Below, in pieces: positions 2,087 through 51,744 of a stretch of DNA of 64,000 nucleotides (its first letter is position 1; every line of letters begins with the position of its first letter). The translations under genes were made by a program, and so were the position numbers. The stretch comes from Acidobacteria bacterium 13_1_40CM_65_14 (GTDB lineage: Bacteria > Acidobacteriota > Vicinamibacteria > Vicinamibacterales > CAVVIG01). The DNA lies in contig MNEX01000136.1 in the NCBI GenBank assembly GCA_001917905.1, positions 10,711 through 74,710 of the forward strand. The letters run 5' to 3'. The notes under the pieces were generated by a model, which was not told where the DNA came from, did no database searches, and saw only the letters and a program-made list of their open reading frames with translations.

Positions 2087-2218
2087 CTTGCGGATTGAAC
2101 CGCAGTCCGGAAAACCTGCGGCACATTACAGGATCTGCTTAGCGCTGCTGCCTTCCGGCCCTGACGCGGTTCGCAGTCTGGAATTGCACAGGTTCCGGAC
2201 CGCGGTGCAATCCGCAAG
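2087..2218 (-). ncRNA. ffs: Signal recognition particle RNA (small/4.5S type)
   Basis: Minus strand reads ...GCGUCAGGGCCGGAAGGCAGCAGC..AGCAGAU.., the conserved domain IV motif with a GGAA tetraloop. Long closing helix: cttgcggattg..ggtccggaacctg pairs with caggttttccggac..caatccgcaag. Usual position upstream of dnaX. Confidence 0.85.
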
Positions 2219-7369: not shown

Positions 7370-7595
7370 TGACGTTCACCCCGGCGGCCACGCGAAGTGG
7401 GTGCGAAGCCCACACGGTCCCGCCACTGTAAGCGGCTAGCGACACGTCAGCAGACGTCACTGGGATGGGACGGTCTAAAGACCGTCCCCTACAACGCGTC
7501 GATATAAGACGCCGGTAGGCGACGGCCTTCAGGCCGTCGCGACTGGGAAGACAGACGTGCCGCGCTGATCCGCGAGTCAGGAAACCTGGCCATCG
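7370..7595 (+). promoter_or_regulatory. Cobalamin (B12) riboswitch
   Basis: GAAGTGGGTGCGAAGCCCACACGGTCCCGCCACTGTAAGCGG core, CACTGGGA...ACTGGGAAG, and B12-box-like GAGTCAGGAAACCTGGCC. Lies directly upstream of a TonB receptor and BtuCDF-type genes. TATACT at 7348 is a possible -10. Confidence 0.75.
7467..7540. repeat. REP-like double hairpin inside the riboswitch variable loop
   Basis: gggacggtctaaagaccgtccc ... gcgacggccttcaggccgtcgc, joined by ctac...gtag. Flanked by cACTGGGA (7458) and gACTGGGA (7541). Confidence 0.6.
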
Positions 7596-7638: not shown

Positions 7639-9891
7639 ATGCGCACGTCCCGCCTCTGGCGGCTGGCTGCGGCCTGCCGTCCATCTCTTCACATCACACT
7701 CGTCACGCTGACACTGCTCGGTCACGCTGTTTCGACAGCCGCCGCCGATCGCGAGGCGTCAGGCACGGTCGTCGATCAATTCGGACAAGCGCTGCCGCGC
7801 GCGTACGTGCGGCTGCTGGATCAGCGCGGCTCGGAAATCACCGCGACGTTCGCCGACCAGACCGGTCGCTTTCGTCTGAACGCGTCGAGCACTGACTGCC
7901 GGATTGAAGCCTCGCTCACCGGCTTCGCGACGGCGAGCGTGCCGTGCGGCGCGCAACCGGCACGCATTGTCCTCGCCGTCGCCCCCGTGCGCGAGACGGT
8001 CGTCGTCAGCGCGACGCGGACCGAGGCGCCCGCCGATCAAGTCGGCGCGAGCGTGACGACCTTCACGGCCGACGATCTCGCGCACCGGCAGGTGCCGCTC
8101 GTCGCCGATCTGCTGCGCGCGTCGCCGGGCGTCATGGTCGTGCGAACCGGATCGCCCGGCGCGGTGACGTCGCTCTTCGTTCGCGGCGGCGAGAGCAACT
8201 ATAACAAGGTGCTGCTCGACGGCATCCCGCTCAACGAGCCGGGCGGCACCTTCAACTTCAGCAATCTGACGACCGACAACCTGGAGCAGATCGAGATCGT
8301 CCGCGGCGCGCACTCGGCGCTCTTCGGGTCGGACGCGATGGCCAGCGTCATCCAGCTCGTGACGAAGCGGCCCGATCGATCCGGCGGCCGGCCGCACGCG
8401 GCGTTGTCGTTCGAGGGCGGCACGTACGATACCTTTCGCGGCAACGCGTCGGTCTCCGGCGCCTCGGGCCGATTCGATTACGTGCTGGGCGCACAGCGGC
8501 TCAACACCGACAATCGTGCGCCGAACAGCCGCTTCGAGAACACGACGCTGTCGGCGAACCTCGGCGTCTCGCTCGGTCACGACGCGATCCTGCGCTTCAT
8601 CGGACGCGGCGAGCGGGAACACGTCGGGACGCCGGGGCAAACCGCATTCGGACGCCCGGATCTCGATGCGTTCTTCGCGCGACGTGACGGCGTCGGTGGA
8701 CTGTCGTTCGACCAGCAGCTCACGGCGTCGTTCCGCCAGCGCGCCGCGTACTCGCTGACCGCGTCGAACCAGCAATCGACGAATCTCCTGCTCGACCCGC
8801 CGTACACGCCGCGCTTCGGCAGCCGCGCGGCACCGTTTCAGTTCTCCGACTTCAGATTCGACAGCCGCACGAACCTCCATCGTCATCACGCCAGCTATCA
8901 GGGGGACTGGCGCGTGACCGGCGATGCCTCGTCTGGTCAGCATCTCCTGAGCGTGCTGGCGGACTGGGACGGCGAGCGCGCGACGCTCGAGAATCGGCTG
9001 ACGCCGACGCGCACCGACGCGGCGCGGAACAACTTCGGATGGTCCGTGCAGCATCAGGCGCTGTGGCGGCGCGTGTTCGCCACCGCCGGCGGCCGCATCG
9101 AGCGCAACGACAGCTTCGGGACCGCGGCGGTGCCGCGTGGATCGATCGTGTTCGTCGCGCGATCGTCGAACGGCGCGGTCGGTGAAACCAAGCTGCGCGC
9201 CAGCGCGGGACTGGGCATCAAGGAGCCGACCGTCCTCGAGTCGTTCAGCCCCTCGCCGTTCTTCCGCGGCAATCCGGATCTCGAACCGGAGCGGTCGCGG
9301 ACGGTTGACGCGGGAATCGAGCAACGCTTCGCGGCCGATCGCGCGAAAGTCGAGCTGACCTGGTTCGACAATCGTTTCGAGAACAAGATTTCGACGCGGA
9401 CGACCAACCCCGCGACATTCGAGGCGCAGTACTTCAATATCGGCTTGTCGCGCGCGCGCGGCGCGGAACTGTCGCTCGACGCTGCGCCGGCGAGGGGACT
9501 GCGCGCCCGCGCCGGCTACACCTTCCTCGCGTCGAAGATTCTCGAGAGCACCGCGCCGAACAACGTCGTGCTGCAGGCGGGCAACTGGTTGTTCAGGCGG
9601 CCGCGGCATTCGGGATTCGTCGGCGCGACGTGGGTCTGGAGCCTGTTGAGCGCCAACGTCGACGGCGTGTTCATCGGCCGCTACGTCGACAGCGACTTCT
9701 CGTCGCTGCAGCCGCCGATCCTCACGAACGACGGCTACACGACGTGGAACGCGCGCGTTGGCTGGAGAGTGTCGCGGCAACTGACAGGTACGGTGTCGAT
9801 CGACAACCTCGCCGACGCGGAGTACATGGAACCGCTCGGGTATCCGGCGCTACGCCGCGCAATCCGTGCGGGCGTCCGCGTCGCGTTCTAA
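7639..9891 (+). CDS. TonB-dependent outer-membrane receptor (BtuB-like)
   Basis: 750 aa. Signal peptide, plug domain (ETVVVSATR... DLLRASPGV.V), C-terminal barrel ending RAGVRVAF. Downstream of the B12 riboswitch. Confidence 0.9.
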   Translation: MRTSRLWRLAAACRPSLHITLVTLTLLGHAVSTAAADREASGTVVDQFGQALPRAYVRLLDQRGSEITATFADQTGRFRLNASSTDCRIEASLTGFATASVPCGAQPARIVLAVAPVRETVVVSATRTEAPADQVGASVTTFTADDLAHRQVPLVADLLRASPGVMVVRTGSPGAVTSLFVRGGESNYNKVLLDGIPLNEPGGTFNFSNLTTDNLEQIEIVRGAHSALFGSDAMASVIQLVTKRPDRSGGRPHAALSFEGGTYDTFRGNASVSGASGRFDYVLGAQRLNTDNRAPNSRFENTTLSANLGVSLGHDAILRFIGRGEREHVGTPGQTAFGRPDLDAFFARRDGVGGLSFDQQLTASFRQRAAYSLTASNQQSTNLLLDPPYTPRFGSRAAPFQFSDFRFDSRTNLHRHHASYQGDWRVTGDASSGQHLLSVLADWDGERATLENRLTPTRTDAARNNFGWSVQHQALWRRVFATAGGRIERNDSFGTAAVPRGSIVFVARSSNGAVGETKLRASAGLGIKEPTVLESFSPSPFFRGNPDLEPERSRTVDAGIEQRFAADRAKVELTWFDNRFENKISTRTTNPATFEAQYFNIGLSRARGAELSLDAAPARGLRARAGYTFLASKILESTAPNNVVLQAGNWLFRRPRHSGFVGATWVWSLLSANVDGVFIGRYVDSDFSSLQPPILTNDGYTTWNARVGWRVSRQLTGTVSIDNLADAEYMEPLGYPALRRAIRAGVRVAF

Positions 9892-9916: not shown

Positions 9917-10000
9917 TTGATTCGGCACGCTGATCAAACACAATGGACACAAAGGACACAAAGGAAGGTGTGTTGATTCAGTGCCGCTACGCCGAATCGA
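9917..10000. repeat. Hairpin repeat (GGACACAAA units in the loop)
   Basis: ttgattcggcacgctgatcaaacaca ... tgtgttgattcagtgccgctacgccgaatcga. Lies after the receptor stop. Confidence 0.6.
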
Positions 10001-10692
10001 AAACCGTTTTCGCCGATGACGATGACAACAAACCTCGGGCCGCCGTTTCGTGGAGCGGCGGGAAAGACAGCTGCGCGGCCCTGCAGCGCGCCTGGCCACA
10101 CTTCGACGTCGTTGCCATGGTGACGATGTTCGACGAAGACGCCGCGCGCAGCCGCTCGCACGGATTGCGGCCCGAGGTGCTCGCCGCGCAGGCGGAGCGC
10201 CTCGGTCTAGGTCAGGTGATCGGCCGTTGCACGTGGCCAACCTACAACGACGCGTTCGGTGACGCGCTCGATCGACTGAAAGCCGACGGCATCACGCACG
10301 TCGTCTTCGGCGACATCCTGTTCGACGAGCATCGCCGCTGGGCCGAGGAGATGTGCGCGCCACGTGGACTCGTCGCCGTCGAACCGTTGTTCGGCGGGTC
10401 GACGCGCGAGCTGCTCGTGGATTGGATTCGGTCTGGTGGTGAAGCGGTCATCGTGACGGCGCGCGCGGAATTTCTCGATGCGAGCTGGCTGGGACGTCCG
10501 CTGACGCTGGACATGCTGGCAGAGCTCGAACCGCTCGGCGTCGACCCATGCGGCGAGCGCGGGGAGTATCACACCGTCGTCACCAACAGCCGTTTGTTTC
10601 GTCAGCCGCTCGTGCTCGAGTTCGGTGCACGCGTCGAGCGATCCGGTTGCTGGGCGCTCGACGTCAGCGTCAGCGAGGGCGTGACCGTATGA
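9943..10692 (+). CDS. DUF71 / Dph6-like PP-loop ATP pyrophosphatase, paralog 1
   Basis: AAVSWSGGKDSCAAL (SGGxDS PP-loop) ... VVFGDILFDEHRRW ... DPCGERGEYHT. The true start is probably GTG 9970 or TTG 9973, because the first codons are repeat-derived. Confidence 0.8.
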   Translation: MDTKDTKEGVLIQCRYAESKTVFADDDDNKPRAAVSWSGGKDSCAALQRAWPHFDVVAMVTMFDEDAARSRSHGLRPEVLAAQAERLGLGQVIGRCTWPTYNDAFGDALDRLKADGITHVVFGDILFDEHRRWAEEMCAPRGLVAVEPLFGGSTRELLVDWIRSGGEAVIVTARAEFLDASWLGRPLTLDMLAELEPLGVDPCGERGEYHTVVTNSRLFRQPLVLEFGARVERSGCWALDVSVSEGVTV

Positions 10693-10708
10693 TCAACGGC
10701 CCGCATAG

Positions 10709-10787
10709 CACGAAAGCACGAACCCGCGAAACCACGAAACGAAACCGGATATCTGTTTCGTGTTTTCGTGTTGTCGTCTTTTCGTGG
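10709..10787. repeat. Intergenic hairpin repeat (CACGAAA-type arms)
   Basis: cacgaaagcacgaacccgcgaaaccacgaaacgaaacc ... gtttcgtgttttcgtgttgtcgtcttttcgtgg. Confidence 0.75.
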
Positions 10788-10807
10788 CTGTTCTTGGGTG
10801 TCTTGTC

Positions 10808-11611
10808 GTGACGCCTGGCTCGCACGTCCTGCACGCCGCCGATGTCGCGTTCACCTACGACCGCCGCGGCCGTCTCGTCGTCGACGGCGTGACGCTCGGC
10901 GTTGGGCGCGGCGCGATTGTCGGACTGCTCGGCCCGAACGGATCCGGCAAGACGACGCTGCTGCGACTGCTGTCGGGGACGGTGACGCCGGTCAGCGGAC
11001 GAATCACTATCAACGGTGTGGCCATCGGGACGCTGTCACGGCGCGAGATGGCGCGGCGCATCGCGGTCGTCCCGCAGGAGACGCACTCGGCGTTCGATTT
11101 CAGCGTGCTCGAGATCGTCTTGATGGGACGCTATCCGCACCTCGGCGCGTTCGAGCTCGAGGGCGCAAACGACGTGGCCATCGCGCGCGAGGCGCTGGCG
11201 GCCACCGGCACGGCGGCGCTCGAGTCGCGCCGGTTCGCCACGCTCAGCGGCGGCGAGAAACAGCGCGTCGTCATCGCGAGCGCGCTGGCGCAGTCATCGG
11301 AGATTCTGCTGCTCGACGAGCCGACTGCGTCGCTCGATCTTGGATTCCAGTTCGACATCGCCAGGCTGCTGACGCGTCTCAACCGCGAGCGCGCGGTGAC
11401 GATGGTCGTGTCGACGCACGATTTGAATCTGGCGGCGACGCTCTGCACGGAGCTCGTGCTGTTGAAGTCGGGGCGCGTGCTCGCGCACGGACCGACCGAG
11501 CGCGTCTTGAACGCCGAAAGCGTTCGGGCGCTGTACGGCGTGGACGCAGACGTCGTGCGGCATCCGCGCGCCGGTCACCTCACGGTGGTGCCGCTTGCCC
11601 GCGCCGACTGA
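10808..11611 (+). CDS. ABC transporter ATPase, FecE/BtuD type
   Basis: GLLGPNGSGKTTLL, LSGGEKQRV, LLLDEPTASLD. Start set to the in-frame GTG at 10808, after the repeat. Confidence 0.9.
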   Translation: MTPGSHVLHAADVAFTYDRRGRLVVDGVTLGVGRGAIVGLLGPNGSGKTTLLRLLSGTVTPVSGRITINGVAIGTLSRREMARRIAVVPQETHSAFDFSVLEIVLMGRYPHLGAFELEGANDVAIAREALAATGTAALESRRFATLSGGEKQRVVIASALAQSSEILLLDEPTASLDLGFQFDIARLLTRLNRERAVTMVVSTHDLNLAATLCTELVLLKSGRVLAHGPTERVLNAESVRALYGVDADVVRHPRAGHLTVVPLARAD

Positions 11612-12611
11612 TGTGCGGCGGCGGCTCGTCGTGACGCTTGCCGCGTTCGGCGCGCTGACGATGGTGTGTGGCCTCGTGGCGCCGATCGTCGGCAGCACGC
11701 CGATTTCGCTGTCGCGCGTGTTCAACCGGACGATTCCGTTTGCCGACAACGTCGATGCGCAGGTGTTCTTCGTCGCGCGGCTTCCGCGAGTGATCGCCGC
11801 CGCACTCGTCGGCAGCGGGCTGGCGGTCGCCGGGGTCGTCTTTCAGGCGCTGCTGCGTAATCCACTCGCGTCGCCGGACACGCTCGGCGTGTCCGCCGGT
11901 GCGACACTCGGCGCGATGATCGCCATCACGTTTCACGTCGACGTGGCGGTGATGGGGATCACCGCGGTGCCGCTCGCGAGCTTTCTCGGCTCCGCCGGCG
12001 CGCTCGGAATTGTGTACTTGCTGGCCGCCGCCCGGAGGCGCGGCACCTCGAGCACGGTGCTGCTGCTCGCCGGCGTCGCCTTGTCCGCGTTCCTCGGCGC
12101 GCTGCTGCGCCTCATCCAGATCGTGGCGGACTTCACCGACACGCTGCGCAACGTTCGATGGATGATGGGATCGCTGGACGTCGCGAGCTACGCGCCGATC
12201 GTGGCCGCGCTCGTGCCGATGACATTCGCGTTCGCCGTCGCCGGCTCGCTCCCGCGTGTGCTCGATCTCATCAGCATGGGCGCGGAGGCGGCCGAATCGC
12301 GTGGCGTGGACGTGCGCCGCGCCGAGCGGATTGCGCTGCTCAGCGCGTCGCTGTCGACCGGCGCCGCGGTGTCGCTCGGTGGACCGATTCCCTTCGTCGG
12401 CATCGTCGTGCCGCACATCGTGCGGCTGCTCGTCGGCGCGGATCATCGCGTCGTACTGCCCGCGTCGGCGCTGTTCGGCGCGTCGTTCGTCATCATCTGC
12501 GACTTGGTCGCGCGAACGTTGTTTGGACCGGTGGAGCTTCCCGTTGGCACGGTCACCGCGATTATCGGAGGACCATTCTTTCTATGGCTGCTGTTCAGGC
12601 GACTCGCGTGA
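11595..12611 (+). CDS. ABC transporter permease, FecCD/BtuC type
   Basis: 338 aa, polytopic. RLPRVIAAALVG..LAVAGVVFQALLRNPLASPDTLGVSAGA. Confidence 0.9.
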   Translation: MPAPTDVRRRLVVTLAAFGALTMVCGLVAPIVGSTPISLSRVFNRTIPFADNVDAQVFFVARLPRVIAAALVGSGLAVAGVVFQALLRNPLASPDTLGVSAGATLGAMIAITFHVDVAVMGITAVPLASFLGSAGALGIVYLLAAARRRGTSSTVLLLAGVALSAFLGALLRLIQIVADFTDTLRNVRWMMGSLDVASYAPIVAALVPMTFAFAVAGSLPRVLDLISMGAEAAESRGVDVRRAERIALLSASLSTGAAVSLGGPIPFVGIVVPHIVRLLVGADHRVVLPASALFGASFVIICDLVARTLFGPVELPVGTVTAIIGGPFFLWLLFRRLA

Positions 12612-13537
12612 TCGGCGGTGCGGCGGCACGAAGAACGCAGAGGGCGCAAAGCTCGCAAAGAAACGCCTTTCTGTCACAGCAGAGTGAACCGTGCTTTGCG
12701 GTCTTGGCGGCCTGTGCGTTCTTCTTTCTATCGGCAGGCGCCGTGCACACCCAGGCGCGGCGCGTGGTGTCCATCATTCCCGCGACGACAGAAATGCTGT
12801 TCGCGATGGGTGCGGGTGATCGACTCGTCGCCGTCGGCAGCTACGACCGCTTTCCATCGGAGGTCGAGAAGCTGCCGCGCGTCGGCGCCCTGCTCGATCC
12901 GGCGGTCGAACGGATTATCGCGATGCGTCCGGATCTCGTGATTCTCTACGGCACGCAGAACGAGCTTCGGACGCAGCTCGACCGCGCGCAGATTGCGTAC
13001 TACTCGTACACGCATCGCGGGCTGACCGATATCACCGAGACCATTCGGTCGCTGGGCGCGCGCGTCGGCGTCGCTCCACGCGCAAACGCCCTGGCCGACA
13101 GCATCGAGCGGCAGCTCGCCGACATCAGGTCGCGCGTCGCCACGAGTCCGAGGCCGAAGACGCTGCTCGTGTTCGGACGCGAGCGCGGCACGCTGAGGAA
13201 CATCGACGCGAGCGGCGGCGTGGGATTCCTGCACGACATGCTCGAAACCGCCGGCGGCGCCGACGTCATGGGCGACGTGAAGCAGCAGTCGGTCATCATG
13301 ACGACGGAGCTGGTGCTGGCGCGGGCGCCGGAGGTGATCATCGAGCTCAGGTACGCGCGCGGCGACGACACCAACGCCACTGACCTGCGCGAGTGGAACG
13401 CGCTGCCGTCGGTGCCGGCGGTGAAGAACCACCGCGTATACATGCTGCGCGGTGAAGAATTCGTCGTGCCCGGTCCTCGCGTCGCCGCGGCCACCGAGCG
13501 CTTGGGCCGCCTCCTGCACCCCGAGGCGTTCAAATGA
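12584..13537 (+). CDS. Periplasmic substrate-binding protein, BtuF/FhuD-like
   Basis: RRVVSIIPATTEMLFAMGAGDRLVAVGSYDRFP ... PDLVILYG. The start is uncertain. The signal-peptide-like CFAVLAACAFFFLSAGAVHTQA is encoded by a repeat arm. Confidence 0.8.
   Translation: MAAVQATRVIGGAAARRTQRAQSSQRNAFLSQQSEPCFAVLAACAFFFLSAGAVHTQARRVVSIIPATTEMLFAMGAGDRLVAVGSYDRFPSEVEKLPRVGALLDPAVERIIAMRPDLVILYGTQNELRTQLDRAQIAYYSYTHRGLTDITETIRSLGARVGVAPRANALADSIERQLADIRSRVATSPRPKTLLVFGRERGTLRNIDASGGVGFLHDMLETAGGADVMGDVKQQSVIMTTELVLARAPEVIIELRYARGDDTNATDLREWNALPSVPAVKNHRVYMLRGEEFVVPGPRVAAATERLGRLLHPEAFK
12627..12725. repeat. Hairpin repeat (CGCAGAG/GCAAAG-type arms)
   Basis: gcacgaagaacgcagagggcgcaaagctcgcaaag ... ctttgcggtcttggcggcctgtgcgttcttc. 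Confidence 0.75.
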
Positions 13538-14217
13538 AAACGCTCGTGTCGTGGTCGAGCGGCAAGGACAGTGCGTGGATGGTGCACGTGCTCCGGCAGC
13601 GCGGCGATGTGCAGCTCGCCGGCCTGCTGACGACGATCAACGAATCGGCGCAGCGTGTGGCGATGCACGCGGTGCGCGTCGATCTGCTGCAGGCGCAGGC
13701 AGACGCGCTCGGACTGCCGCTGTGGCAGATCCCGATTCCGTCGCCCTGTCCGAACGACGTCTACGAGCGGGCGATGGCGGCGGCGGTCGCGCGTGCGGTC
13801 GCCGACGGCTTCACGCACATCGCGTTCGGCGATTTGTTTCTCGAGGACATCCGCCGGTATCGCGCAGAGAAGCTGGCGGGAACAGGACTGACGCCGCTGT
13901 TTCCGCTGTTTGACGCCGACACGCCGCGGCTGGCGCGCGAGATGGTGACGGCGGGACTGGGCGCGCGGATCACATGCGTCAACCCGAAGGTCATCGATCG
14001 ATCGTTTGCCGGACGCGAGTTCAACGCGTCGCTGCTCGACGACCTGCCACCGTCAGTCGATCCGTGCGGCGAGCGCGGCGAGTTCCACACGTTCGCCTAC
14101 AAAGGTCCGATGTTCGCGCGCGAGATTCCAATCGACATCGGCATCACCGTCGAGCGCGATGGGTTCGTGTTCACCGATCTGCAATGGCGACATACCCCGA
14201 GCGCATTGTCTGTCTGA
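13534..14217 (+). CDS. DUF71 / Dph6-like PP-loop ATP pyrophosphatase, paralog 2
   Basis: MKTLVSWSSGKDSAWMV ... IAFGDLFLEDIRRY ... DPCGERGEFHTF. ATGA overlap with the upstream gene. Confidence 0.85.
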   Translation: MKTLVSWSSGKDSAWMVHVLRQRGDVQLAGLLTTINESAQRVAMHAVRVDLLQAQADALGLPLWQIPIPSPCPNDVYERAMAAAVARAVADGFTHIAFGDLFLEDIRRYRAEKLAGTGLTPLFPLFDADTPRLAREMVTAGLGARITCVNPKVIDRSFAGREFNASLLDDLPPSVDPCGERGEFHTFAYKGPMFAREIPIDIGITVERDGFVFTDLQWRHTPSALSV

Positions 14218-14984
14218 CGGAAGAGACGACCGAGACGCTCTACCTCCTCGGCCAGGGCGAGCGGATCGTCGGCGTTTCCGGCTACACCGTGCGTCCGCCG
14301 GAGGCGCGACGGAAGCCGAAGGTCTCGGCGTTCATCAACGCGAAGTTCGACAAGATCGAGGCGCTGAAGCCGGACCTCGTGCTCGCGTTCTCCGATCTGC
14401 AGGCGGATTTGTCGGCGGAGCTCGTGCGGCGCGGCATCGCCGTCGTGACCTTCAATCAGCGGACCGTCGCCGAGATCCTGCAGATGATCCGGATGCTCGG
14501 CGGACTCGTCGGCTGTCAGGGCGAAGCGGAGGCGCTCGCCGATCGACTTGCCGCCGGCCTCGATCGCATTCGGGAATCGGCGTCGCACTTTCCCTCGCAG
14601 CCGCGTACGTTCTTCGAGGAATGGGACGATCCGTTGATCTCGGGGATCCGCTGGGTCGAGGAACTGGCGGAGATCGCCGGCGGCGCGCCGATCTTTCCCG
14701 AGCTTGCGCACGCCGGGCTCGCAAAGGATCGCATCGTCGATCCGGCGGAGGTCGCTCGACGCGATCCGCAAATCGTCTTCGCGTCGTGGTGCGGAAAGAA
14801 GATGAAGAAGGCGACGATCGTCGGCCGCGCCGGGTGGGACTCAGTGAGCGCCGTACGCGACGACGAGATTCACGAGATCAAGTCGACCTACATCCTGCAG
14901 CCGGGCCCGGCGAGCCTGACCGTGGGCGTCCAGCAACTTCACGACATGCTCTCGCGGTTCCACCGCGCGCGCTTGCGCCCGTAG
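14184..14984 (+). CDS. Cobalamin-binding / BtuF-like protein without signal peptide
   Basis: MATYPERIVCLTEETTETLYLLGQGERIVGVSGY ... KPDLVLAF (periplasmic-binding-protein type 2 fold signature). No N-terminal hydrophobic leader. Confidence 0.75.
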   Translation: MATYPERIVCLTEETTETLYLLGQGERIVGVSGYTVRPPEARRKPKVSAFINAKFDKIEALKPDLVLAFSDLQADLSAELVRRGIAVVTFNQRTVAEILQMIRMLGGLVGCQGEAEALADRLAAGLDRIRESASHFPSQPRTFFEEWDDPLISGIRWVEELAEIAGGAPIFPELAHAGLAKDRIVDPAEVARRDPQIVFASWCGKKMKKATIVGRAGWDSVSAVRDDEIHEIKSTYILQPGPASLTVGVQQLHDMLSRFHRARLRP

Positions 14985-15796
14985 CCGATTCGCGCCTTCA
15001 CGGTGCGGCCGATCTGCCGCACGGCGGCCGCCGCCGACGGCTGCCACACGAAGACGCTCTTGCACAACGCGCGCTCCTCGCCGATCGAGGCGCCGCGGGC
15101 GCGCGCTTCCATGAGCCGCGCGTAGTAGACGCACCACAGCGTGAAGTACCGATTGTCGACCGCCGCGAGATAGCCGTTGTAGTCGGCGAACGCGCCTTGT
15201 CCCCATTCCATCGGATGGCGCTCGTGCCGAATCTCGCCGCCGCTCGCAATCAGTCCGTCGCCGTGACACATCGCGATCGCGGCGTAGACGACGTCCCAGC
15301 ACGCCTCACCGATGATGTACGGCCGGAAGCGATGCTGGTTCGCGCGCCACCACCGCACGTCGAACGCGAACGCATCGAGGCCCGAGAGCGTCGGCTCGAG
15401 CGCGCGCCCCGTCTCGCGATCGACGTCGAGCCGCGAGAACGCGTACGTTTCTTCACTGCGCTCTTGAATGAGCGTAACGGCCGCCTGCGTCACGATGATG
15501 TCGGCGTTGGTGAGCATGAAGTATTGATGCCCGCCGCGCTCGGCCAGGTCGGCGAGCGCCCGCATCATGTCGGTGGTGATTGGCTTACGCCGGCCGCCGC
15601 AGCCGCTGACGCTGCGCGAGTCGAGGTGAAGATCGCAGACCGTCCGAATCCACGGCCGCCACGGCGGCGTCGGGTCCCACTGCAGATCGACGACTTCGAC
15701 TCCTTCCAGCCTGCCCAGCGCGTCCATGGCCTGCGCCTGACGCCGTTGGCTGTCGCCGTGTGCGGCGTAGAACTGCGTGCCGATGAGGATGCTCAT
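14939..15796 (-). CDS. Hypothetical protein (possibly GT-A-like fold)
   Basis: 285 aa. YFMLTNADIIV ... GLDAFAFDVRWW is reminiscent of glycosyltransferase-2-like proteins. Weak. Confidence 0.5.
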   Translation of the reverse strand: MSILIGTQFYAAHGDSQRRQAQAMDALGRLEGVEVVDLQWDPTPPWRPWIRTVCDLHLDSRSVSGCGGRRKPITTDMMRALADLAERGGHQYFMLTNADIIVTQAAVTLIQERSEETYAFSRLDVDRETGRALEPTLSGLDAFAFDVRWWRANQHRFRPYIIGEACWDVVYAAIAMCHGDGLIASGGEIRHERHPMEWGQGAFADYNGYLAAVDNRYFTLWCVYYARLMEARARGASIGEERALCKSVFVWQPSAAAAVRQIGRTVKARIGYGRKRARWNRESMS

Positions 15797-16293
15797 ACGT
15801 CGTCATCGGGATCGATGGCGATGTACGGCTGCGACGCGCGTTTGACGACAATCGTGAGGCCGAAGGCGACGAGCACCGCCGCCGCCGCGAGGCCGACGTA
15901 GATGCCGCTGCCGACGATCGCGTGGGCGTCCTGGACGGCTGACGCCGGCACGCCGTCGGCAATCGCGACCGCCTGCGCCCACGTCCGCGCGCCCTGCTCG
16001 GCCGATCGCGGCACGATGCGCCACGCGAGAAAAGTGATGCCGAGTGAAAAGAGGCCGATGACCAGCAGCGGGTGCCGCGAGTTCTTCCGCGTGATCATGC
16101 TCAGCGTCGCGAGCACGGCGGCCAGTGCGCCCAGGCCCGCCAGCCACAGCGCCCAGACGTCGGGCACGCCGCGCCGCGAATACTCGCCGATGATGACCCA
16201 GGGCAGGAATGCGCTCGTCGTCAACGCGACGCCCGCGGCAAGCGGAACGAGATAGCCCCGCATGCCGGGACGGAACATGCCTCTAAACCGCAT
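15793..16293 (-). CDS. Small membrane protein, unknown function
   Basis: 166 aa, 4-5 hydrophobic helices. 4-nt overlap with the downstream gene. Confidence 0.55.
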   Translation of the reverse strand: MRFRGMFRPGMRGYLVPLAAGVALTTSAFLPWVIIGEYSRRGVPDVWALWLAGLGALAAVLATLSMITRKNSRHPLLVIGLFSLGITFLAWRIVPRSAEQGARTWAQAVAIADGVPASAVQDAHAIVGSGIYVGLAAAAVLVAFGLTIVVKRASQPYIAIDPDDDV

Positions 16294-47457: not shown

Positions 47458-48240
47458 GTCCTGCACGAAGGTGTACGGCGGCCACGGCCCGGTGAGCGTC
47501 AGGCCGTAGCCGTGACGAGAGAGCGCGCGCGCCTCGCGCGCCGCGAGCGCGCGAAACGTCTTCGATCGCGATCGCGGCACGAGAAACGCCGCGTCGAGCA
47601 GCGGCGGACCGCCGTGCGCCGGCAGCTCGGTCGCCGCCCGGCGCCGTGCGACGCGCGACTGGGCCGACAGTCGATCGTACAACGCGGCGACCGCTTCGCG
47701 TGCTCGCTCGGCGAGCTCGGTCGACGCGTCACGCTGAGCTTTCTTGCGCGACAAGTACGCGACGCCGGACGCGCCGGCCGCTCTCGTTCGAGCGGGCACG
47801 GCCGCCTCGGCGGCACGTGTACGATCAAGCACCACGCGGACGCCCCACTCGTAATGATTCGCGACGCGCTTCACCAGTGCGTCGATCCGCGATCGATCGG
47901 CGCGGATGTGCTCGAGCGCCCGTTCGTCGCTGTTGAAGATCGTCAATAGCTTCATCGGGAGCACGGCGGTCGCATCGATGAACGATTCGACGACGACTTC
48001 GTGCGCCACCGCCGCGCGCGAGACCCACTCGAGATCCGACAGGCCGCGATGAATCGCCGCCTCGCCGTATCGAGCGAGCGGCACGTCGGCGACGACGAGA
48101 TACCGGCCGCGCTCGAGATCGAGCAGCCGTACGCGTCCGGCGCCGGGCAATCCAGCCGGCACGCGCGACACGGTCGACAGCCGCGGCGCGCGCGGCGCCG
48201 CGACCACGCAATACACGTACGTGCCCGTCCCCTTAGCCAT
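47455..48240 (-). CDS. Gas vesicle protein GvpL/GvpF family (intact)
   Basis: MAKGTGTYVYCVVAAP ... AVLPMKLLTIF ... YEWGVRV ... LLDAAFLV ... LTGPWPPYTFV. Confidence 0.85.
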   Translation of the reverse strand: MAKGTGTYVYCVVAAPRAPRLSTVSRVPAGLPGAGRVRLLDLERGRYLVVADVPLARYGEAAIHRGLSDLEWVSRAAVAHEVVVESFIDATAVLPMKLLTIFNSDERALEHIRADRSRIDALVKRVANHYEWGVRVVLDRTRAAEAAVPARTRAAGASGVAYLSRKKAQRDASTELAERAREAVAALYDRLSAQSRVARRRAATELPAHGGPPLLDAAFLVPRSRSKTFRALAAREARALSRHGYGLTLTGPWPPYTFVQD

Positions 48241-50371
48241 CAGCCTGAGCCCTGTCGAGCGTCCACCATCGCGCCCAGCGATCGAGCGCGCGCACACCGC
48301 GCGGCGGCGGCGCCGACAACGGGGTTTGGATGATAACGCACTCGCGCGACCGCGCGCCGCAGCGCCGGCGCAGCGCCGCGAGCGACCGCCGCTCCGTCGC
48401 CGCGGTGGCACGGCACCGCGTGCAGCGGCCCGGGGCCAGCGTCATCGCGTTGACGATGACGGCGGGCGCGGCGAGCGTCAGACGCCGCAGGCGGGTCAAG
48501 AGACGCTCGGTTTCGAACCGCGGGACTTCGGCTGCGCGCGTGACGACGAGGAAGCGCGTGTGCGACGCGTCGCGGAGGATCGTCTGCAGTTCGCGAATCG
48601 ACTTCGACACGTCGACCAATTCGGCCGCGAGCTGTCCCGGGCGAACGAGCGATTTGTATTTCAGCAGCATGCGCAGCAGCACCTGGACCCACTCGCGCGC
48701 CGCGTCGGGCAGCTCCAGCAGTCGTAAGGCGTGACCGGTCGGCGCGGTGTCGACGATGATGACGTCGTATTCACTGGCGCGTGGGGCCCCACCCCCACGC
48801 GCTGAAGACCTCGCGCTCGAGCGTAGACTCTCGCGCTCGGGTGTGAGAAGCCGGGTCACCTCGAGGATGCCGAAGAGCTCGTCGACACCCGGCGGTGCGA
48901 GATCCATCAACTCGGCCGCGCCGCGCGGGCCGCCGGCGCTCGCGTCGGCGCCGAACGAGTGGGCGATCTCATCGAGCGCGTGCTCGAGATCGACGCGTCG
49001 TGCGGCGAGCGCCCGCGCCGCGTCGAGCTCGCGGATGAACAAGTTCGCTGGGCCGCCGCGGACGGCCTTCGGCGTATCGCCGATGGCCTCCTTTCTCGCA
49101 TCGAGTACATCCGCGATCGAGTGCGCGGGATCAGTCGACAGCAGCAGCATCCGCCGATCCGGATGCGCGCGCGCCAACCGTATCGCCGCCGCCGTCGATA
49201 CCGTCGTCTTCCCGACGCCGCCCTTGCCGCCGACGAAGAGCAGCTTCGCGCCGCGAAGGACGTCAAGCGATTCGGGCGAAACGGTGCGCTCGCCTTTCGG
49301 GGCACTCAGCGCGAACGGAACCCTCTCTTCACCACGGGGGCGACGGAGGACACGGAGGGCCAAACCAGTTTTTTTCTCCGTGTCCTCCGCGTCCTCCGTG
49401 GTGGAGAGTGTCGTACCGATCTTGGCGAGCGCAGCCACGCCTCGCGGCTCGCGCAGACTGGCCGGGATGATGCGCAGCGTTCGCCCGCGACCGAGACGGC
49501 GTGTGATCCGGGCGATGACACGCTGTTCATCGGCGCGCCGGCGATCGCAGATGGGACACGGTCCGGCCGCGGGCAGCACCCGGTTGACGATGATCTCTGC
49601 GGCGTGCATCCCGTTGGTCTCGAGCGCCGCGAGACCGTCTTCACTCTCGGCGAGCGACAGCGCTTCGGGCAGCGTCACCCAGCAGAACGTCGTGCGCTGC
49701 CGATCGCGGAGCGTCTCGCCGGTCTCACGCGCCTGCTCGGCGAGCCGTGCGATCAGTCGATCGGCGGCTTCGGGCCGGCCGACACGCGCGAGCTGCTCGC
49801 GAATCAGCCGATGCTCCGCCTGCAGCGCATCGAGGATGCCGGCGACCACCGCCACGGTCTGCGGTGACGCGAGCAGCCGGAGGGTGTGACCGGTCGGCGC
49901 GGTATCGACGACGATGTGATCGTAGCGACGCGAGTCGGCGAGCCTCGCGATTTCGAGGATGCCGGCGAGCTCGTCGACGCCCGGCAGCGACAAATCCAGG
50001 AGCGTGTCGACGTCGGCGCGATCGAGCCAGGTGCCGTGCTCGAGCGCCTCGCCGAGCGCCGCGCCATGCTCACCAATCCACCGCGCGAAGGCGCGCGGCG
50101 CGTCGAGCTCGACGGCCGTCAACCCGCGCCGGATCGCGCGCGGTGACGCCGCGAGCTGCACGCCCAGCGCGTCGCCGAGGGAATGCGCGGGATCGGTCGA
50201 CACCACGAGCACGCGTGCGCGCTTGCCCCGCCGAAGCGCTGAAAGCGCGCAGGCGGACGCCGCCGCGCACGTCGTCTTCCCCACGCCGCCTTTCCCGCCA
50301 TAGAAGATGAATCTCGGGAAGCTCGAAAAGTTTGAAGTCTGAAGTTTGAAGTCTGAACGGCGAGATCTCAA
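48233..50371 (-). CDS. Tandem (fused double) ArsA/Get3-family ATPase with CxxC in each half
   Basis: Two halves, each with GGKGGVGKTT, STDPAHS and DTAPTGH(T/A)LRLL, plus IVNRVLPAAGPCPICDRRR / IVNAMTLAPGRCTRCRAT. 8-nt overlap with the gvpL start. Confidence 0.85.
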   Translation of the reverse strand: MRSRRSDFKLQTSNFSSFPRFIFYGGKGGVGKTTCAAASACALSALRRGKRARVLVVSTDPAHSLGDALGVQLAASPRAIRRGLTAVELDAPRAFARWIGEHGAALGEALEHGTWLDRADVDTLLDLSLPGVDELAGILEIARLADSRRYDHIVVDTAPTGHTLRLLASPQTVAVVAGILDALQAEHRLIREQLARVGRPEAADRLIARLAEQARETGETLRDRQRTTFCWVTLPEALSLAESEDGLAALETNGMHAAEIIVNRVLPAAGPCPICDRRRADEQRVIARITRRLGRGRTLRIIPASLREPRGVAALAKIGTTLSTTEDAEDTEKKTGLALRVLRRPRGEERVPFALSAPKGERTVSPESLDVLRGAKLLFVGGKGGVGKTTVSTAAAIRLARAHPDRRMLLLSTDPAHSIADVLDARKEAIGDTPKAVRGGPANLFIRELDAARALAARRVDLEHALDEIAHSFGADASAGGPRGAAELMDLAPPGVDELFGILEVTRLLTPERESLRSSARSSARGGGAPRASEYDVIIVDTAPTGHALRLLELPDAAREWVQVLLRMLLKYKSLVRPGQLAAELVDVSKSIRELQTILRDASHTRFLVVTRAAEVPRFETERLLTRLRRLTLAAPAVIVNAMTLAPGRCTRCRATAATERRSLAALRRRCGARSRECVIIQTPLSAPPPRGVRALDRWARWWTLDRAQADG
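48775..48840. repeat. GC-rich palindromic element in frame inside the ArsA-like gene
   Basis: gcgcgtggggccccacccccacgcgc..ctcgcgctcgagcg..ctcgcgctcgg. Encodes ESLRSSARSSARGGGAPRAS just before YDVIIVDTAPTGH. Confidence 0.75.
49325..49409. repeat. GAGGACACG-type hairpin repeat forming the inter-half linker of the ArsA-like ORF
   Basis: ctcttcaccacgggggcgacggaggacacggaggg...ctccgtgtcctccgcgtcctccgtggtggagag. Translated as LSTTEDAEDTEKKTGLALRVLRRPRGEE. Confidence 0.85.
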
Positions 50372-50420
50372 GGCCGGAAATCTTCAGGCTTCATACTTCA
50401 GACTTCAGACTTCATACTTG
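50327..50420. repeat. Hairpin repeat (TGAAGTC heptamer arms) between gvpG and the ArsA-like gene
   Basis: aaaagtttgaagtctgaagtttgaagtctgaa ... ttcatacttcagacttcagacttcatacttgaa. Covers the ArsA-like ATG (50371). Confidence 0.85.
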
Positions 50421-50422
50421 AA

Positions 50423-50713
50423 TCAGCCTTCAGACTTCCAACTTTCGACCTCGACGCCGGAGATCTTGTCCTTGGAGGACATCGTGATGGCGCCCTGCTG
50501 CTGACCCTTGATCTCGCGGATGCGCGCGAGCACGTCCTTTTCGATCTGCGCGAACTCCTCATCGGAGATCTCGCCGAGCTCCAGCCGCATCTGCGCTTCG
50601 AGCAGCTGCTCGCGCAGCGCCGTGTCGTCGTTCATCTCCGCCTCCGCGGCGGCGACGACCTTGTCGAGGACGAAACGCAGGCTGCCAATCAAGAGCGTGT
50701 CGAGGATGAACAT
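50423..50713 (-). CDS. gvpG: Gas vesicle protein GvpG
   Basis: MFILDTLLIGSLRFVLDKVVAAAEAEMNDDTALREQLLEAQMRLELGEISDEEFAQIEKDVLARI. Confidence 0.8.
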   Translation of the reverse strand: MFILDTLLIGSLRFVLDKVVAAAEAEMNDDTALREQLLEAQMRLELGEISDEEFAQIEKDVLARIREIKGQQQGAITMSSKDKISGVEVESWKSEG

Positions 50714-50726
50714 GACAGGAACATGA

Positions 50727-50810
50727 GATTGCAGAGTTCAGAGTTCAGATTTCAGATTGGATTTCAGATTCAATCTGCAATCTGCAATCTGCAATCTGAA
50801 ATCTGAAATG
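50727..50810. repeat. Hairpin repeat (CAGATTT / CAATCTG heptamer arms) between gvpF and gvpG
   Basis: gattgcagagttcagagttcagatttcagattggatttcagatt caatctgcaatctgcaatctgcaatctgaaatctgaaatg. Confidence 0.85.
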
Positions 50811-51744
50811 TCACGCTCGCTCGAGCTTCAGCCGGATGTTCACGAAGTTGTACGGCGGCCACGGCCCCGTGTACTTGAACGTCAGCTTGTCGAGGCGGCC
50901 GGCGATCGATTTCACCTTCACGTCGAACGCCGTTTCCTGACGCGACCGACACTTCCTTGAGCTGCTCGAGGATGTCGGCGACGTAGCGCTCGGACCGGGC
51001 CTGCAGCGCCGAATCGATCAGGCGGCCGTACTGCATGCGCGCGAAGTAGGTCGGACCCTTCTGGCCGGAGATCTCCTTCTTCAGCCGGCTGATGTCCTCG
51101 TCCTCGTGCTCGACCTCGCGAATCGCCTGATCGCGATCCCAGAGCACCTTCAAACCGAACTCGAGCTTGTTCTGCATCTTGTCCAGCACGTCGCCGAACG
51201 CTACGGCCGCCGATCGCAGCAGCTCGACGATGTCTTCACGCGTCTTGAAAATCGTGCCGAACGACATCGGGATGACGGTGTGCTCGCGCATCACGGTTTC
51301 GTTCACGCGCTCGTGCGCGAGCACGTTTTCACGCGTCGAGTCGAGGACCTCGAGTGGCGCATCAGAGACGACGGCGGCGAGGCTCTTGTAGTGCACCGTG
51401 TACACCTCGGAAGGATCGGCCCCGATGCCAACCGGGCCGAAGCGCAGCGCATCGGGCGCTTCGATGATGCAGTACACGTATTTGCCGCGGCTCGCGCCCG
51501 TGGCCGCATCGGTCGACGGCGACACGCGGCCGCCGTGCAGGACTTTCTCTGACGCGCGGCGCTCGATCCGCCTCGCTTCGCGCGGCGCCGCCTTCGCCGC
51601 GCGCACGGCCCCGTTCGGCCTCGCCGGCCGGGCGACCGGCGCCGCGGATTTCTTTCGGCCCGCCTTCACGCCCGTTTTCACGCCCGCCCCGACGGCACCG
51701 CGCCCTCGCTCGCCCTTCGGCGCGCTACCCGATGCTTTTCGCAT
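50811..51744 (-). pseudogene. GvpF/GvpL-family gene with frame disruption near 50935-50950
   Basis: The N-terminal and middle parts (GKYVYCIIEAPD...VIPMSFGTIF...LEFGLKVLW...DILEQLKEVSVA) are in one frame. The family C-terminus RQETAFDVKVKSIAGRLDKLTFKYTGPWPPYNFVNIRLKLERA* (stop 50811-50813) is in another. The start is ATG 51744 or GTG 51525. Confidence 0.75.

Follow-up and report, generated by a model that had tools for sequence, protein, structure and literature searches.

What does a bacterial corrinoid uptake operon gain from carrying two PP-loop ATPases and, as its last gene, a BtuF-like binding protein without a signal peptide? The question is raised by a locus of Acidobacteria bacterium 13_1_40CM_65_14, which we analysed within a 64,000-nucleotide (nt) window (contig MNEX01000136.1, positions 10,711 to 74,710; G+C 65.6%). 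Here a cobalamin riboswitch is followed by seven co-directional genes that encode, in order, a TonB-dependent receptor, a first DUF71-family protein (DUF71-1), a BtuD-like ATPase, a BtuC-like permease, a signal-bearing BtuF-like protein, a second DUF71-family protein (DUF71-2) and the signal-less BtuF-like protein, which we call BtuF_cyt. Every element of this riboswitch-led order, proposed in a preliminary description of the DNA, was recovered with RF00174, Pfam and NCBIfam models, and the tight junctions described there are also present: the BtuF-like and DUF71-2 genes meet in an ATGA overlap (13534/13537), and the DUF71-2 and BtuF_cyt genes overlap by 34 nt (14184/14217). We place the end of the operon at 14984 because the next gene is convergent, and we found no convincing intrinsic terminator inside it. 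The best explanation of the locus as a whole, for which we see about even chances, is a corrinoid uptake operon joined to a cytoplasmic BtuF-like/DUF71 processing module; at the level of the module, it is probable that a binder in the cytoplasm is coupled to an ATP-dependent modification of corrinoids.

For comparison, 80 species-representative loci were retrieved through DUF71-2 (loci are numbered with L), and the other genomes were seen as 10-kb flanks. Proteins that match those of the operon at 99% identity or are identical to them are annotated from soil metagenome-assembled genomes of 'Acidobacteria bacterium 13_1_40CM'. Among species-representative genomes, the close relatives belong to Vicinamibacterales and other Acidobacteriota. 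All seven genes in this layout are found in L001, L004-L006, L008-L010, L016 and L093, with partial versions in many more loci; in L001 and L093 the layout stands at the equivalent place in the chromosome, flanked by futalosine-pathway/YjbQ genes on one side and the isc operon on the other. Variants lack DUF71-1 (L007, L012, L013, L015, L091), the last gene (L011, L017, L025) or both (L031, L032, L035, L055, L070, L077), and the syntenic locus L003 (7344-10786) retains btuD, btuC and both BtuF-like genes, periplasmic and signal-less, has neither receptor nor DUF71 gene, and gives no riboswitch match at the gathering threshold. Since the layout recurs in orthologous loci, it is, as judged from gene order, a conserved operon type of Vicinamibacterales-like Acidobacteriota and not a one-off. 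The preliminary description had presented the arrangement as unusual to this DNA, and on that point it does not stand, as the layout is found in many such genomes. The core of the riboswitch aptamer is aligned, B12 box included; 79 nt are inserted in its variable P6 region, and the aptamer ends 55 nt before the receptor gene. A riboswitch precedes the orthologous operon at the same position in six loci (L001, L004, L011, L012, L031, L086), which, together with the score in the window, supports the riboswitch control that had been proposed; by homology, regulation of the operon is B12-responsive.

The uptake genes are recognisable and divergent. The top NCBIfam model for the receptor is that of TonB-B12 receptors, at 209 bits far under its cutoff of 599.7, and the protein is presumed to be the corrinoid receptor. 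The ATPase matches NCBIfam models of the corrinoid, heme and F420-0 type, and the top model for the FecCD permease is BtuC, under cutoff. The periplasmic BtuF-like protein is encoded in a long open reading frame (ORF) that begins at 12158, with a realistic start at 12584 or 12608; a hydrophobic segment, CFAVLAACAFFFLSAGAV, precedes its domain and provides an N-terminal signal, and a clear hydrophobic signal is found in nearly all of its orthologues (KD10 above 2.4). Both docking glutamates of E. coli BtuF, E72 and E202, are strictly kept in this group of paralogs. With 88.4 bits against the NCBIfam BtuF equivalog cutoff of 234 (NF002894), the protein looks like a bona fide but divergent periplasmic BtuF.

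BtuF_cyt, 28% identical to this paralog, begins with MATYPERIVCLTEE, directly at the start of the domain, which runs from residue 5, and the in-frame stretch upstream is Arg-rich and not hydrophobic. Its orthologues start M-x-x-YP-xRIVCLTEETTETLYLLG, and because no more than 4-16 codons separate the domain from an upstream in-frame stop in L001, L004, L005, L008, L012, L013, L015, L016 and L042, no signal peptide is possible. The description of this product as a binding protein lacking a signal peptide is thus borne out, and BtuF_cyt is predicted to be cytoplasmic. At the docking positions it has D, E or P at 72 and an acidic residue at 202 or one after. These acidic residues, the class-III binding-protein fold nearest BtuF, and the position of the gene directly after a btuDCF set, in L003 even without DUF71, would suit a second periplasmic protein, exported non-classically and serving BtuCD as an alternative binder with another corrinoid specificity. 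We regard this as very improbable given the lack of an N-terminal extension and the stops in the orthologues, the fusion of such proteins to ATP-dependent cytoplasmic enzymes (DUF71-2 and polyphosphate kinase 1, PPK1), their presence in operons and gene pairs without btuCD, and the docking glutamates, which are strict in the true periplasmic paralog but not in BtuF_cyt.

Thousands of BtuF_cyt homologues are found in metagenomes at 82-99% identity, nearly all of them 260-285 aa long. The AlphaFold2 (AF2) model of BtuF_cyt (pLDDT 90.7, pTM 0.88) has the class-III binding-protein fold and in structure most resembles V. cholerae BtuF (E 9e-20, TM 0.77-0.80), with heme-binding proteins and E. coli BtuF (E 1.7e-16) ranking next; sequence search returns the same order. 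Against the BtuF equivalog model (NF002894) BtuF_cyt scores 52.7 bits and does not pass. It shares with BtuF of E. coli (1N4A) and V. cholerae (5YSC) the two-lobed Peripla_BP_2 fold with its backbone helix, the rank of top match in sequence and structure, and the N-lobe aromatic positions, kept in kind. It differs from them in lacking a signal peptide and the C-lobe contacts of the E. coli protein, in its linkage or fusion to a cytoplasmic enzyme, and in conserved motifs of its own, CLTEETTETLYLLG, FEEWDDPLISGIRWVEEL and SWCGK.

The two DUF71 proteins are PP-loop ATP pyrophosphatases of 35% mutual identity (E 1e-34). The preliminary description had ascribed two motifs to both of them. The second is indeed shared, as DPCGERGEYHT in DUF71-1 and DPCGERGEFHT in DUF71-2, but SGGKDS is found in DUF71-1 only, DUF71-2 having SSGKDS, a variant common to 67 of the 80 DUF71-2 orthologues. 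Among their relatives, structures have been solved only for PF0828 and PH1257, both of the Dph6 type (E 1e-14 to 4e-9). In the alignment to PF0828 (3RJZ) the motif GEGGEFET reads GERGEFHT or GERGEYHT here, so that His takes the place of Glu188, and the PP-loop and the equivalents of His48 and Thr189 (PF0828 numbering) are kept in both paralogs. ExGEFH[TS], with the His, is present in 80 of 80 DUF71-2 orthologues, and the signature His in eight of nine DUF71-1 orthologues; the second position of ExGE[F/Y]H is R, N or K. Neither paralog passes the NCBIfam Dph6 equivalog model (TIGR03679; 79.0 and 62.6 bits, cutoff 197.3). Profile and alignment therefore place neither with the Dph6 type; clustering of both with that type would have counted against the proposed B12 connection. 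Both carry the signature of the DUF71-B12 subgroup, which de Crecy-Lagard et al. 2012 (Biol Direct 7:32; PMC3541065) defined by ENGE[F/Y]H.

Seventy-five of the 102 DUF71-B12 members in that study adjoin btuCDF-type genes (PMC3541065), and both genes here lie within a cobalamin-riboswitch operon with btuCDF-like genes, as do their counterparts in many orthologous loci. By sequence both paralogs belong to DUF71-B12, and since both have His for Glu188, their link to B12 as such was already known from comparative genomics. The likeness extends to PF01902 membership, the ATP-site residues, the His in ExGE[F/Y]H, the btuCDF clustering and a function that so far is only predicted. In contrast to the published subgroup, the proteins here have ERGE for ENGE and, in DUF71-2, SSGKDS for SGGKDS; two paralog lineages share an operon, with a tandem fusion known from one other protein; and there is a dedicated signal-less BtuF-like partner, of two classes and with fused forms. 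At least 584 relatives of DUF71-2 were found in species-representative genomes. Orthologues of DUF71-1 occur in L001, L004-L006, L008-L011, L016, L017, L025, L086 and L093, and in the retrieved loci DUF71-1 is always accompanied by DUF71-2, a count biased by the choice of loci via DUF71-2. We also considered that one paralog might be a decaying duplicate, and rejected this because both lineages are orthologously conserved between genomes with intact motifs.

Signal-less BtuF-like genes adjoin DUF71-2 orthologues in several phyla. Among the 80 loci such a gene lies within ~120 bp of DUF71-2 in 24, and 12 have a signal-bearing BtuF only. The linked genes fall into two classes, the one seen in the window (class 1, 14 loci) and a second (class 2, 10 loci) of proteins of ~315 aa that are ~26% identical to BtuF_cyt. 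The docking positions are not conserved in class 2, and its Cys motifs (HECD, CDVCA, CCGF/PCGF) suggest a metal or redox site. DUF71-2 and BtuF-like genes also form pairs without nearby transporter genes, of class 1 in the Hyphomicrobiaceae loci L042 and L064 and further in L047, L059, L071 and L079. When contexts were sampled from the side of BtuF_cyt, DUF71-2 was present in three of five (L001, L091, L093) and missing from two (L003, L092).

The second class has an operon of its own, in which a riboswitch is followed by a receptor, a membrane protein of the DUF6580 family, a signal-less BtuF-like protein and DUF71-2, with no btuCD (L026, L037, L065, L075). Related operons lack the receptor (L043) or the BtuF-like gene (L068), and the riboswitch scores of this operon type are 88-110 bits. 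The DUF6580 gene lies between the riboswitch-controlled TonB receptor and the BtuF-like/DUF71-2 pair. Because operons with DUF6580 lack btuCD, this uncharacterised protein, for which neither a PDB sequence match nor an NCBIfam name was found, nor any mention in the searchable literature, is a candidate inner-membrane corrinoid transporter. Downstream of the class-2 operons lie genes for ASRT (Anabaena sensory rhodopsin transducer, PF07100), a thiamine pyrophosphate (TPP) enzyme, an enolase-superfamily protein and phosphoenolpyruvate carboxylase, none recognisably B12-related. In L026 the ASRT gene immediately follows DUF71-2, and in L037 it lies downstream at a distance of ~1.5 kb; after it come a TPP enzyme in L026 and an enolase-superfamily gene in both loci; the two ASRT genes probably belong to a separate operon.

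Fusions were sought with the fused ORF and in a 1.8-billion-protein representative library. DUF71-2::BtuF_cyt fusions of class 1 were found on JGI contigs as P0241, P0243 and P0244. The longer contig of P0241 (L086) has operon neighbours that are all intact; that of P0244 (L087) holds too little neighbourhood to judge its quality, and no internal start is possible at the junction of this protein, which reads RDFTPDPYPRRIVCLTEE. A class-2 fusion of a DUF71-2-like to a BtuF-like protein (P0470/P0511, 613-618 aa) occurs on four contigs (L089 1644-3485); by composition it may come from a eukaryote, perhaps an alga auxotrophic for B12, and its gene adjoins one for an ankyrin/leucine-rich-repeat protein. 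In addition, an intact tandem DUF71::DUF71 fusion (P0397, L088 52-1428) lies on a short contig of an unrelated lower-GC organism. Its N half is best matched by DUF71-1 (99.8 versus 61 bits) and its C half by DUF71-2 (154 versus 110 bits), a single example that hints that the two types act together. A PP-loop ATPase requires cytoplasmic ATP, and for this reason any partner fused to one must be cytoplasmic; the fusions of BtuF_cyt to ATP-dependent cytoplasmic enzymes, DUF71-2 and PPK1, thus provide an independent argument for its location.

Most of the apparent fusions from the library (P0242, P0362, P0384, P0426, P0459 and possibly P0245) were discarded or downgraded as frameshift artefacts, coming from error-prone long-read assemblies with out-of-frame Arg-rich stretches and fragmented neighbouring genes. 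The fusion in L020 was kept as 'possible' only, because the 34-nt gene overlap lets a 1-nt indel mimic a fusion. The long-read metagenome assemblies from which such proteins came (among them L084 and L085) are rich in frameshifted genes and yield false fusions, especially at overlapping genes, and Rosetta-stone evidence from this source needs checking at the level of the sequence. Other DUF71 proteins (P0385, P0453, P0458, P0465, P0481) carry a fused domain of the 4'-phosphopantetheinyl transferase, GNAT acetyltransferase, DUF2284 or dual-specificity phosphatase type, which suggests that the family has further functions beyond Dph6 and B12.

The idea of a cytoplasmic hand-off from BtuF_cyt to DUF71-2, raised in the preliminary description, gains support from the recurring adjacency of the two genes in several phyla and from the fusions, and a number of observations pull the other way. 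No BtuF-like gene adjoins DUF71-2 in 44 of the 80 loci, many of them among housekeeping genes; by inspection, such 'orphan' orthologues in Acidobacteriaceae have uvrB-, gltX-, cytochrome oxidase- and rpe-like neighbours, an uninformative setting. In L003 BtuF_cyt accompanies btuDCF only and in L092 it stands alone, both without DUF71, so coupling is not obligatory, and a BtuF_cyt-like domain forms the N terminus of a full PPK1 (P0464, L090 8001-10985) on four contigs where no B12 genes lie near. The evidence from fusions amounts to a handful of contigs and is thin, several apparent cases being artefacts, and the AF2 model of P0241 has confident domains (pLDDT 87) joined by a disordered linker, with no defined interface (pTM 0.59), and so lends support to neither side. 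The ligand is a further point. In the sequence of E. coli BtuF, verified against the PDB, we take the B12 contacts to be Y50, W66, W85, F162, F168, W196, D242 and R246; BtuF_cyt has Y, F and F at the three N-lobe aromatics, and E, a gap, D, T and Q at the other five. Because these C-lobe contacts are not conserved, we can only infer that BtuF_cyt binds corrinoid, which is plausible. Among the larger ORFs scanned in the window, no cob or cbi gene and no B12-dependent enzyme was found, and the operon contains no gene for a glutaminase or other ammonia donor. Finally, the phylogenetic profile published in 2012, an anticorrelation with CbiZ, points to nucleotide-loop remodelling and not to amidation (PMC3541065).

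The loci with BtuF_cyt alone, the PPK1 fusion, the many DUF71-2 orthologues without a BtuF-like neighbour and the lack of confidently predicted interdomain packing are all in keeping with an alternative in which the two proteins have independent functions. BtuF_cyt would then be a general cytoplasmic corrinoid buffer or chaperone, for B12 storage or for delivery to B12-dependent enzymes or the riboswitch pool, and the DUF71 enzymes would act separately, their adjacency reflecting shared B12 regulation only. We consider this unlikely, as DUF71-2 fusions exist for both divergent classes of BtuF-like protein, DUF71-2/BtuF-like pairs persist where no transporter genes are near, and the overlapping gene pairs suggest translational coupling. 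Judged from gene order and fused forms, the cytoplasmic BtuF-fold protein is genomically coupled with a DUF71-B12 enzyme.

How might a processing module of this kind work? In the scheme we propose, the B12-repressed operon would join corrinoid acquisition to processing: the TonB-dependent receptor, the periplasmic BtuF-like protein and the BtuCD-like importer would bring the corrinoid in, and BtuF_cyt would capture it in the cytoplasm and present it to DUF71-2, which, where DUF71-1 is there too, probably acts in a heteromer with it. The PP-loop enzyme would adenylate a side-chain carboxyl (or carbonyl) of the corrinoid with release of pyrophosphate, and attack by ammonia, the outcome we prefer, would re-amidate deamidated or incompletely amidated soil corrinoids so that they could serve as cobamide precursors. 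Different side chains or substrates would fall to the two paralogs, and the signature His may hold the corrin in place, perhaps via the cobalt. Amidation is favoured on two grounds: Dph6, alone among the relatives in being characterised, ligates ammonia to a carboxylate in an ATP-dependent reaction (PMC3541065), a chemistry established for PP-loop proteins, and the ATP site is conserved in full; by this analogy we put it forward tentatively, and would not be surprised to see it fail. Somewhat more doubtful still is the fuller reading in which BtuF_cyt was recruited as a dedicated carrier feeding a heteromeric PP-loop pair, an unrecognised quality-control (repair or remodelling) step for corrinoids that would be widespread in soil Acidobacteriota, occur also in Planctomycetota, Myxococcota and Proteobacteria, and be served by BtuCD-F or DUF6580.

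A different chemistry follows the proposal made for DUF71-B12 in 2012, namely a CbiZ-like, pseudo-B12 amidohydrolase role or an alternative salvage route (PMC3541065). On this account DUF71-B12 would spend ATP on activating the amide bond between the f-side chain and the aminopropanol/nucleotide loop, yielding cobyric acid or a transamidation product from cobinamide or from cobamides with an unwanted lower ligand, with BtuF_cyt as the carrier. The strict anticorrelation with bacterial CbiZ in the analysed bacterial genomes, which also encode CbiB, and the 18 of 102 DUF71-B12 members that adjoin cbiB (PMC3541065) keep a role in nucleotide-loop remodelling alive, and the change of Glu188 to His suggests a chemistry unlike that of Dph6. 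Here, neither cbiZ nor cbiB was seen among the larger ORFs scanned in the window. The PP-loop superfamily also offers a precedent in QueC, which adenylates an amide oxygen. Amide hydrolysis, however, requires no ATP, yet all ATP-site residues are conserved, and no cbiB, cobS, cobT or cobU was found in the scanned ORFs of the window or in the neighbourhoods examined. We hold a substitute for CbiZ to be improbable, and keep the preference for amidation at the tentative strength given above.

Against the other known systems the operon is set apart as follows. The DUF71 paralogs have the fold family of Dph6 (PF0828, PH1257; PDB 3RJZ, 2D13) and probably form an adenylate too; they differ in having His in place of the EGGE/DxE188 catalytic motif and in standing in a context of B12 uptake. 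To our knowledge, diphthamide is absent from bacteria. Like CbiZ, an adenosylcobinamide/pseudo-B12 amidohydrolase with genes by btuFCD, the module would represent cytoplasmic corrinoid processing encoded beside importers; CbiZ is of a protein family unrelated to DUF71 and is ATP-independent, and none was seen in the window or in the loci examined. As for what was known before, the preliminary description had mentioned a B12-linked DUF71 subgroup without biochemistry and with a predicted amidation-type step. The subgroup exists, and we found no biochemical follow-up in the searchable literature, which yielded the 2012 paper and citations of it, a provisional result as subscription journals are thinly covered; the published prediction, however, was CbiZ-like. 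With the same reservation on coverage, we found no description of cytoplasmic BtuF-like partners, and a term search of the 2012 paper (PMC3541065) did not find a signal-less BtuF-like partner ('BtuF' once, 'signal' never). The B12 link of bacterial DUF71 is known comparative genomics; what is added here, provisionally, is the conservation of the seven-gene layout, the signal-less BtuF-like partner in its two classes, the operons without btuCD and the fusions.

The coordinates of the features are collected in the table. Three imperfect hairpin elements with 8-9-nt periodic repeats lie at gene junctions of the operon; the orthologous operon of L001 has tight junctions without them. They resemble small mobile elements or repetitive extragenic palindromic (REP)-like ones, and appear to be the source of 5' codons in DUF71-1 and in the signal-encoding part of the gene for the periplasmic BtuF-like protein. 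The PP-loop core of DUF71-1 begins near 10036, and its first 20-30 codons, missing in orthologues, appear to derive from the repeat element. Downstream, two convergent genes give no significant Pfam or NCBIfam match, and the first overlaps the 3' end of the BtuF_cyt gene by 46 nt. Elsewhere in the window, unrelated to the operon, are genes for a signal recognition particle (SRP) RNA and an ArsA-like double ATPase; a GvpL/GvpF gas-vesicle-family gene lies ~400 bp from the latter on the same strand.

Table. Features of the window, and of comparison loci (L numbers), with positions, strand and supporting matches
Feature	Position	Strand	Match or remark
Cobalamin riboswitch aptamer	7394-7584	+	RF00174, 59.4 bits (gathering score 31.5)
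TonB-dependent outer-membrane receptor	7639-9891	+	Pfam Plug, TonB_dep_Rec_b-barrel, N-terminal CarboxypepD_reg
Imperfect hairpin element, 8-9-nt periodic repeats	9930-9981		ACACAAAGG x3
DUF71-1, PP-loop ATP pyrophosphatase, DUF71-B12 type	9943-10692	+	PF01902 (Diphthami_syn_2) 1.9e-36, 126.1 bits (gathering score 23.2)
Intergenic hairpin, 8-nt periodic repeats, DUF71-1/ATPase junction	10709-10786	no strand	CACGAAAG../..TTTCGTG, 32-nt arms 78% complementary
BtuD-like ABC ATPase	10808-11611 (alternative starts 10760, 10784)	+	PF00005 2.2e-32
BtuC-like FecCD permease	11595-12611	+	PF01032 2.3e-89
Periplasmic BtuF-like protein	12584-13537	+	PF01497 1.5e-27
Imperfect hairpin element, 8-9-nt periodic repeats	12634-12720		GCGCAAAG.., 27-nt arms
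DUF71-2, PP-loop ATP pyrophosphatase, DUF71-B12 type	13534-14217	+	PF01902 8.8e-25, 88.0 bits (gathering score 23.2)
BtuF_cyt, signal-less BtuF-like protein	14184-14984	+	PF01497 (Peripla_BP_2) 6.2e-37
Convergent gene	14939-15796	-	
Convergent gene	15793-16293	-	
SRP RNA gene	2102-2200	-	
ArsA-like double ATPase gene	48233-51744	-	
Class-2 signal-less genes adjoining DUF71-2	L043 9036-9998; L059 5927-6868; L079 4335-5282; L026 5162-6028; L047 10666-11616; L071 10687-11622		Peripla_BP_2
DUF6580 membrane protein, ~170-200 aa	L026 4644-5165; L068 9366-9968; also L043, L065		PF20221
ASRT gene	L026 6695-7096; L037 6357-6791		PF07100

DUF71-B12 has been a predicted, uncharacterised family of B12-salvage enzymes since 2012. 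The conserved and sometimes fused BtuF_cyt offers an experimental handle on it, since the ligand of the partner should be the substrate of the enzyme and the pair can be co-expressed; that the DUF71 question is turned from an open into a testable one is the main value of the finding. It also flags DUF6580 as a candidate new inner-membrane transporter of corrinoids. Corrinoid scavenging is practised by most soil bacteria, and Acidobacteriota are an abundant group. If the module repairs or remodels scavenged corrinoids, models of B12 cross-feeding in soil would change.

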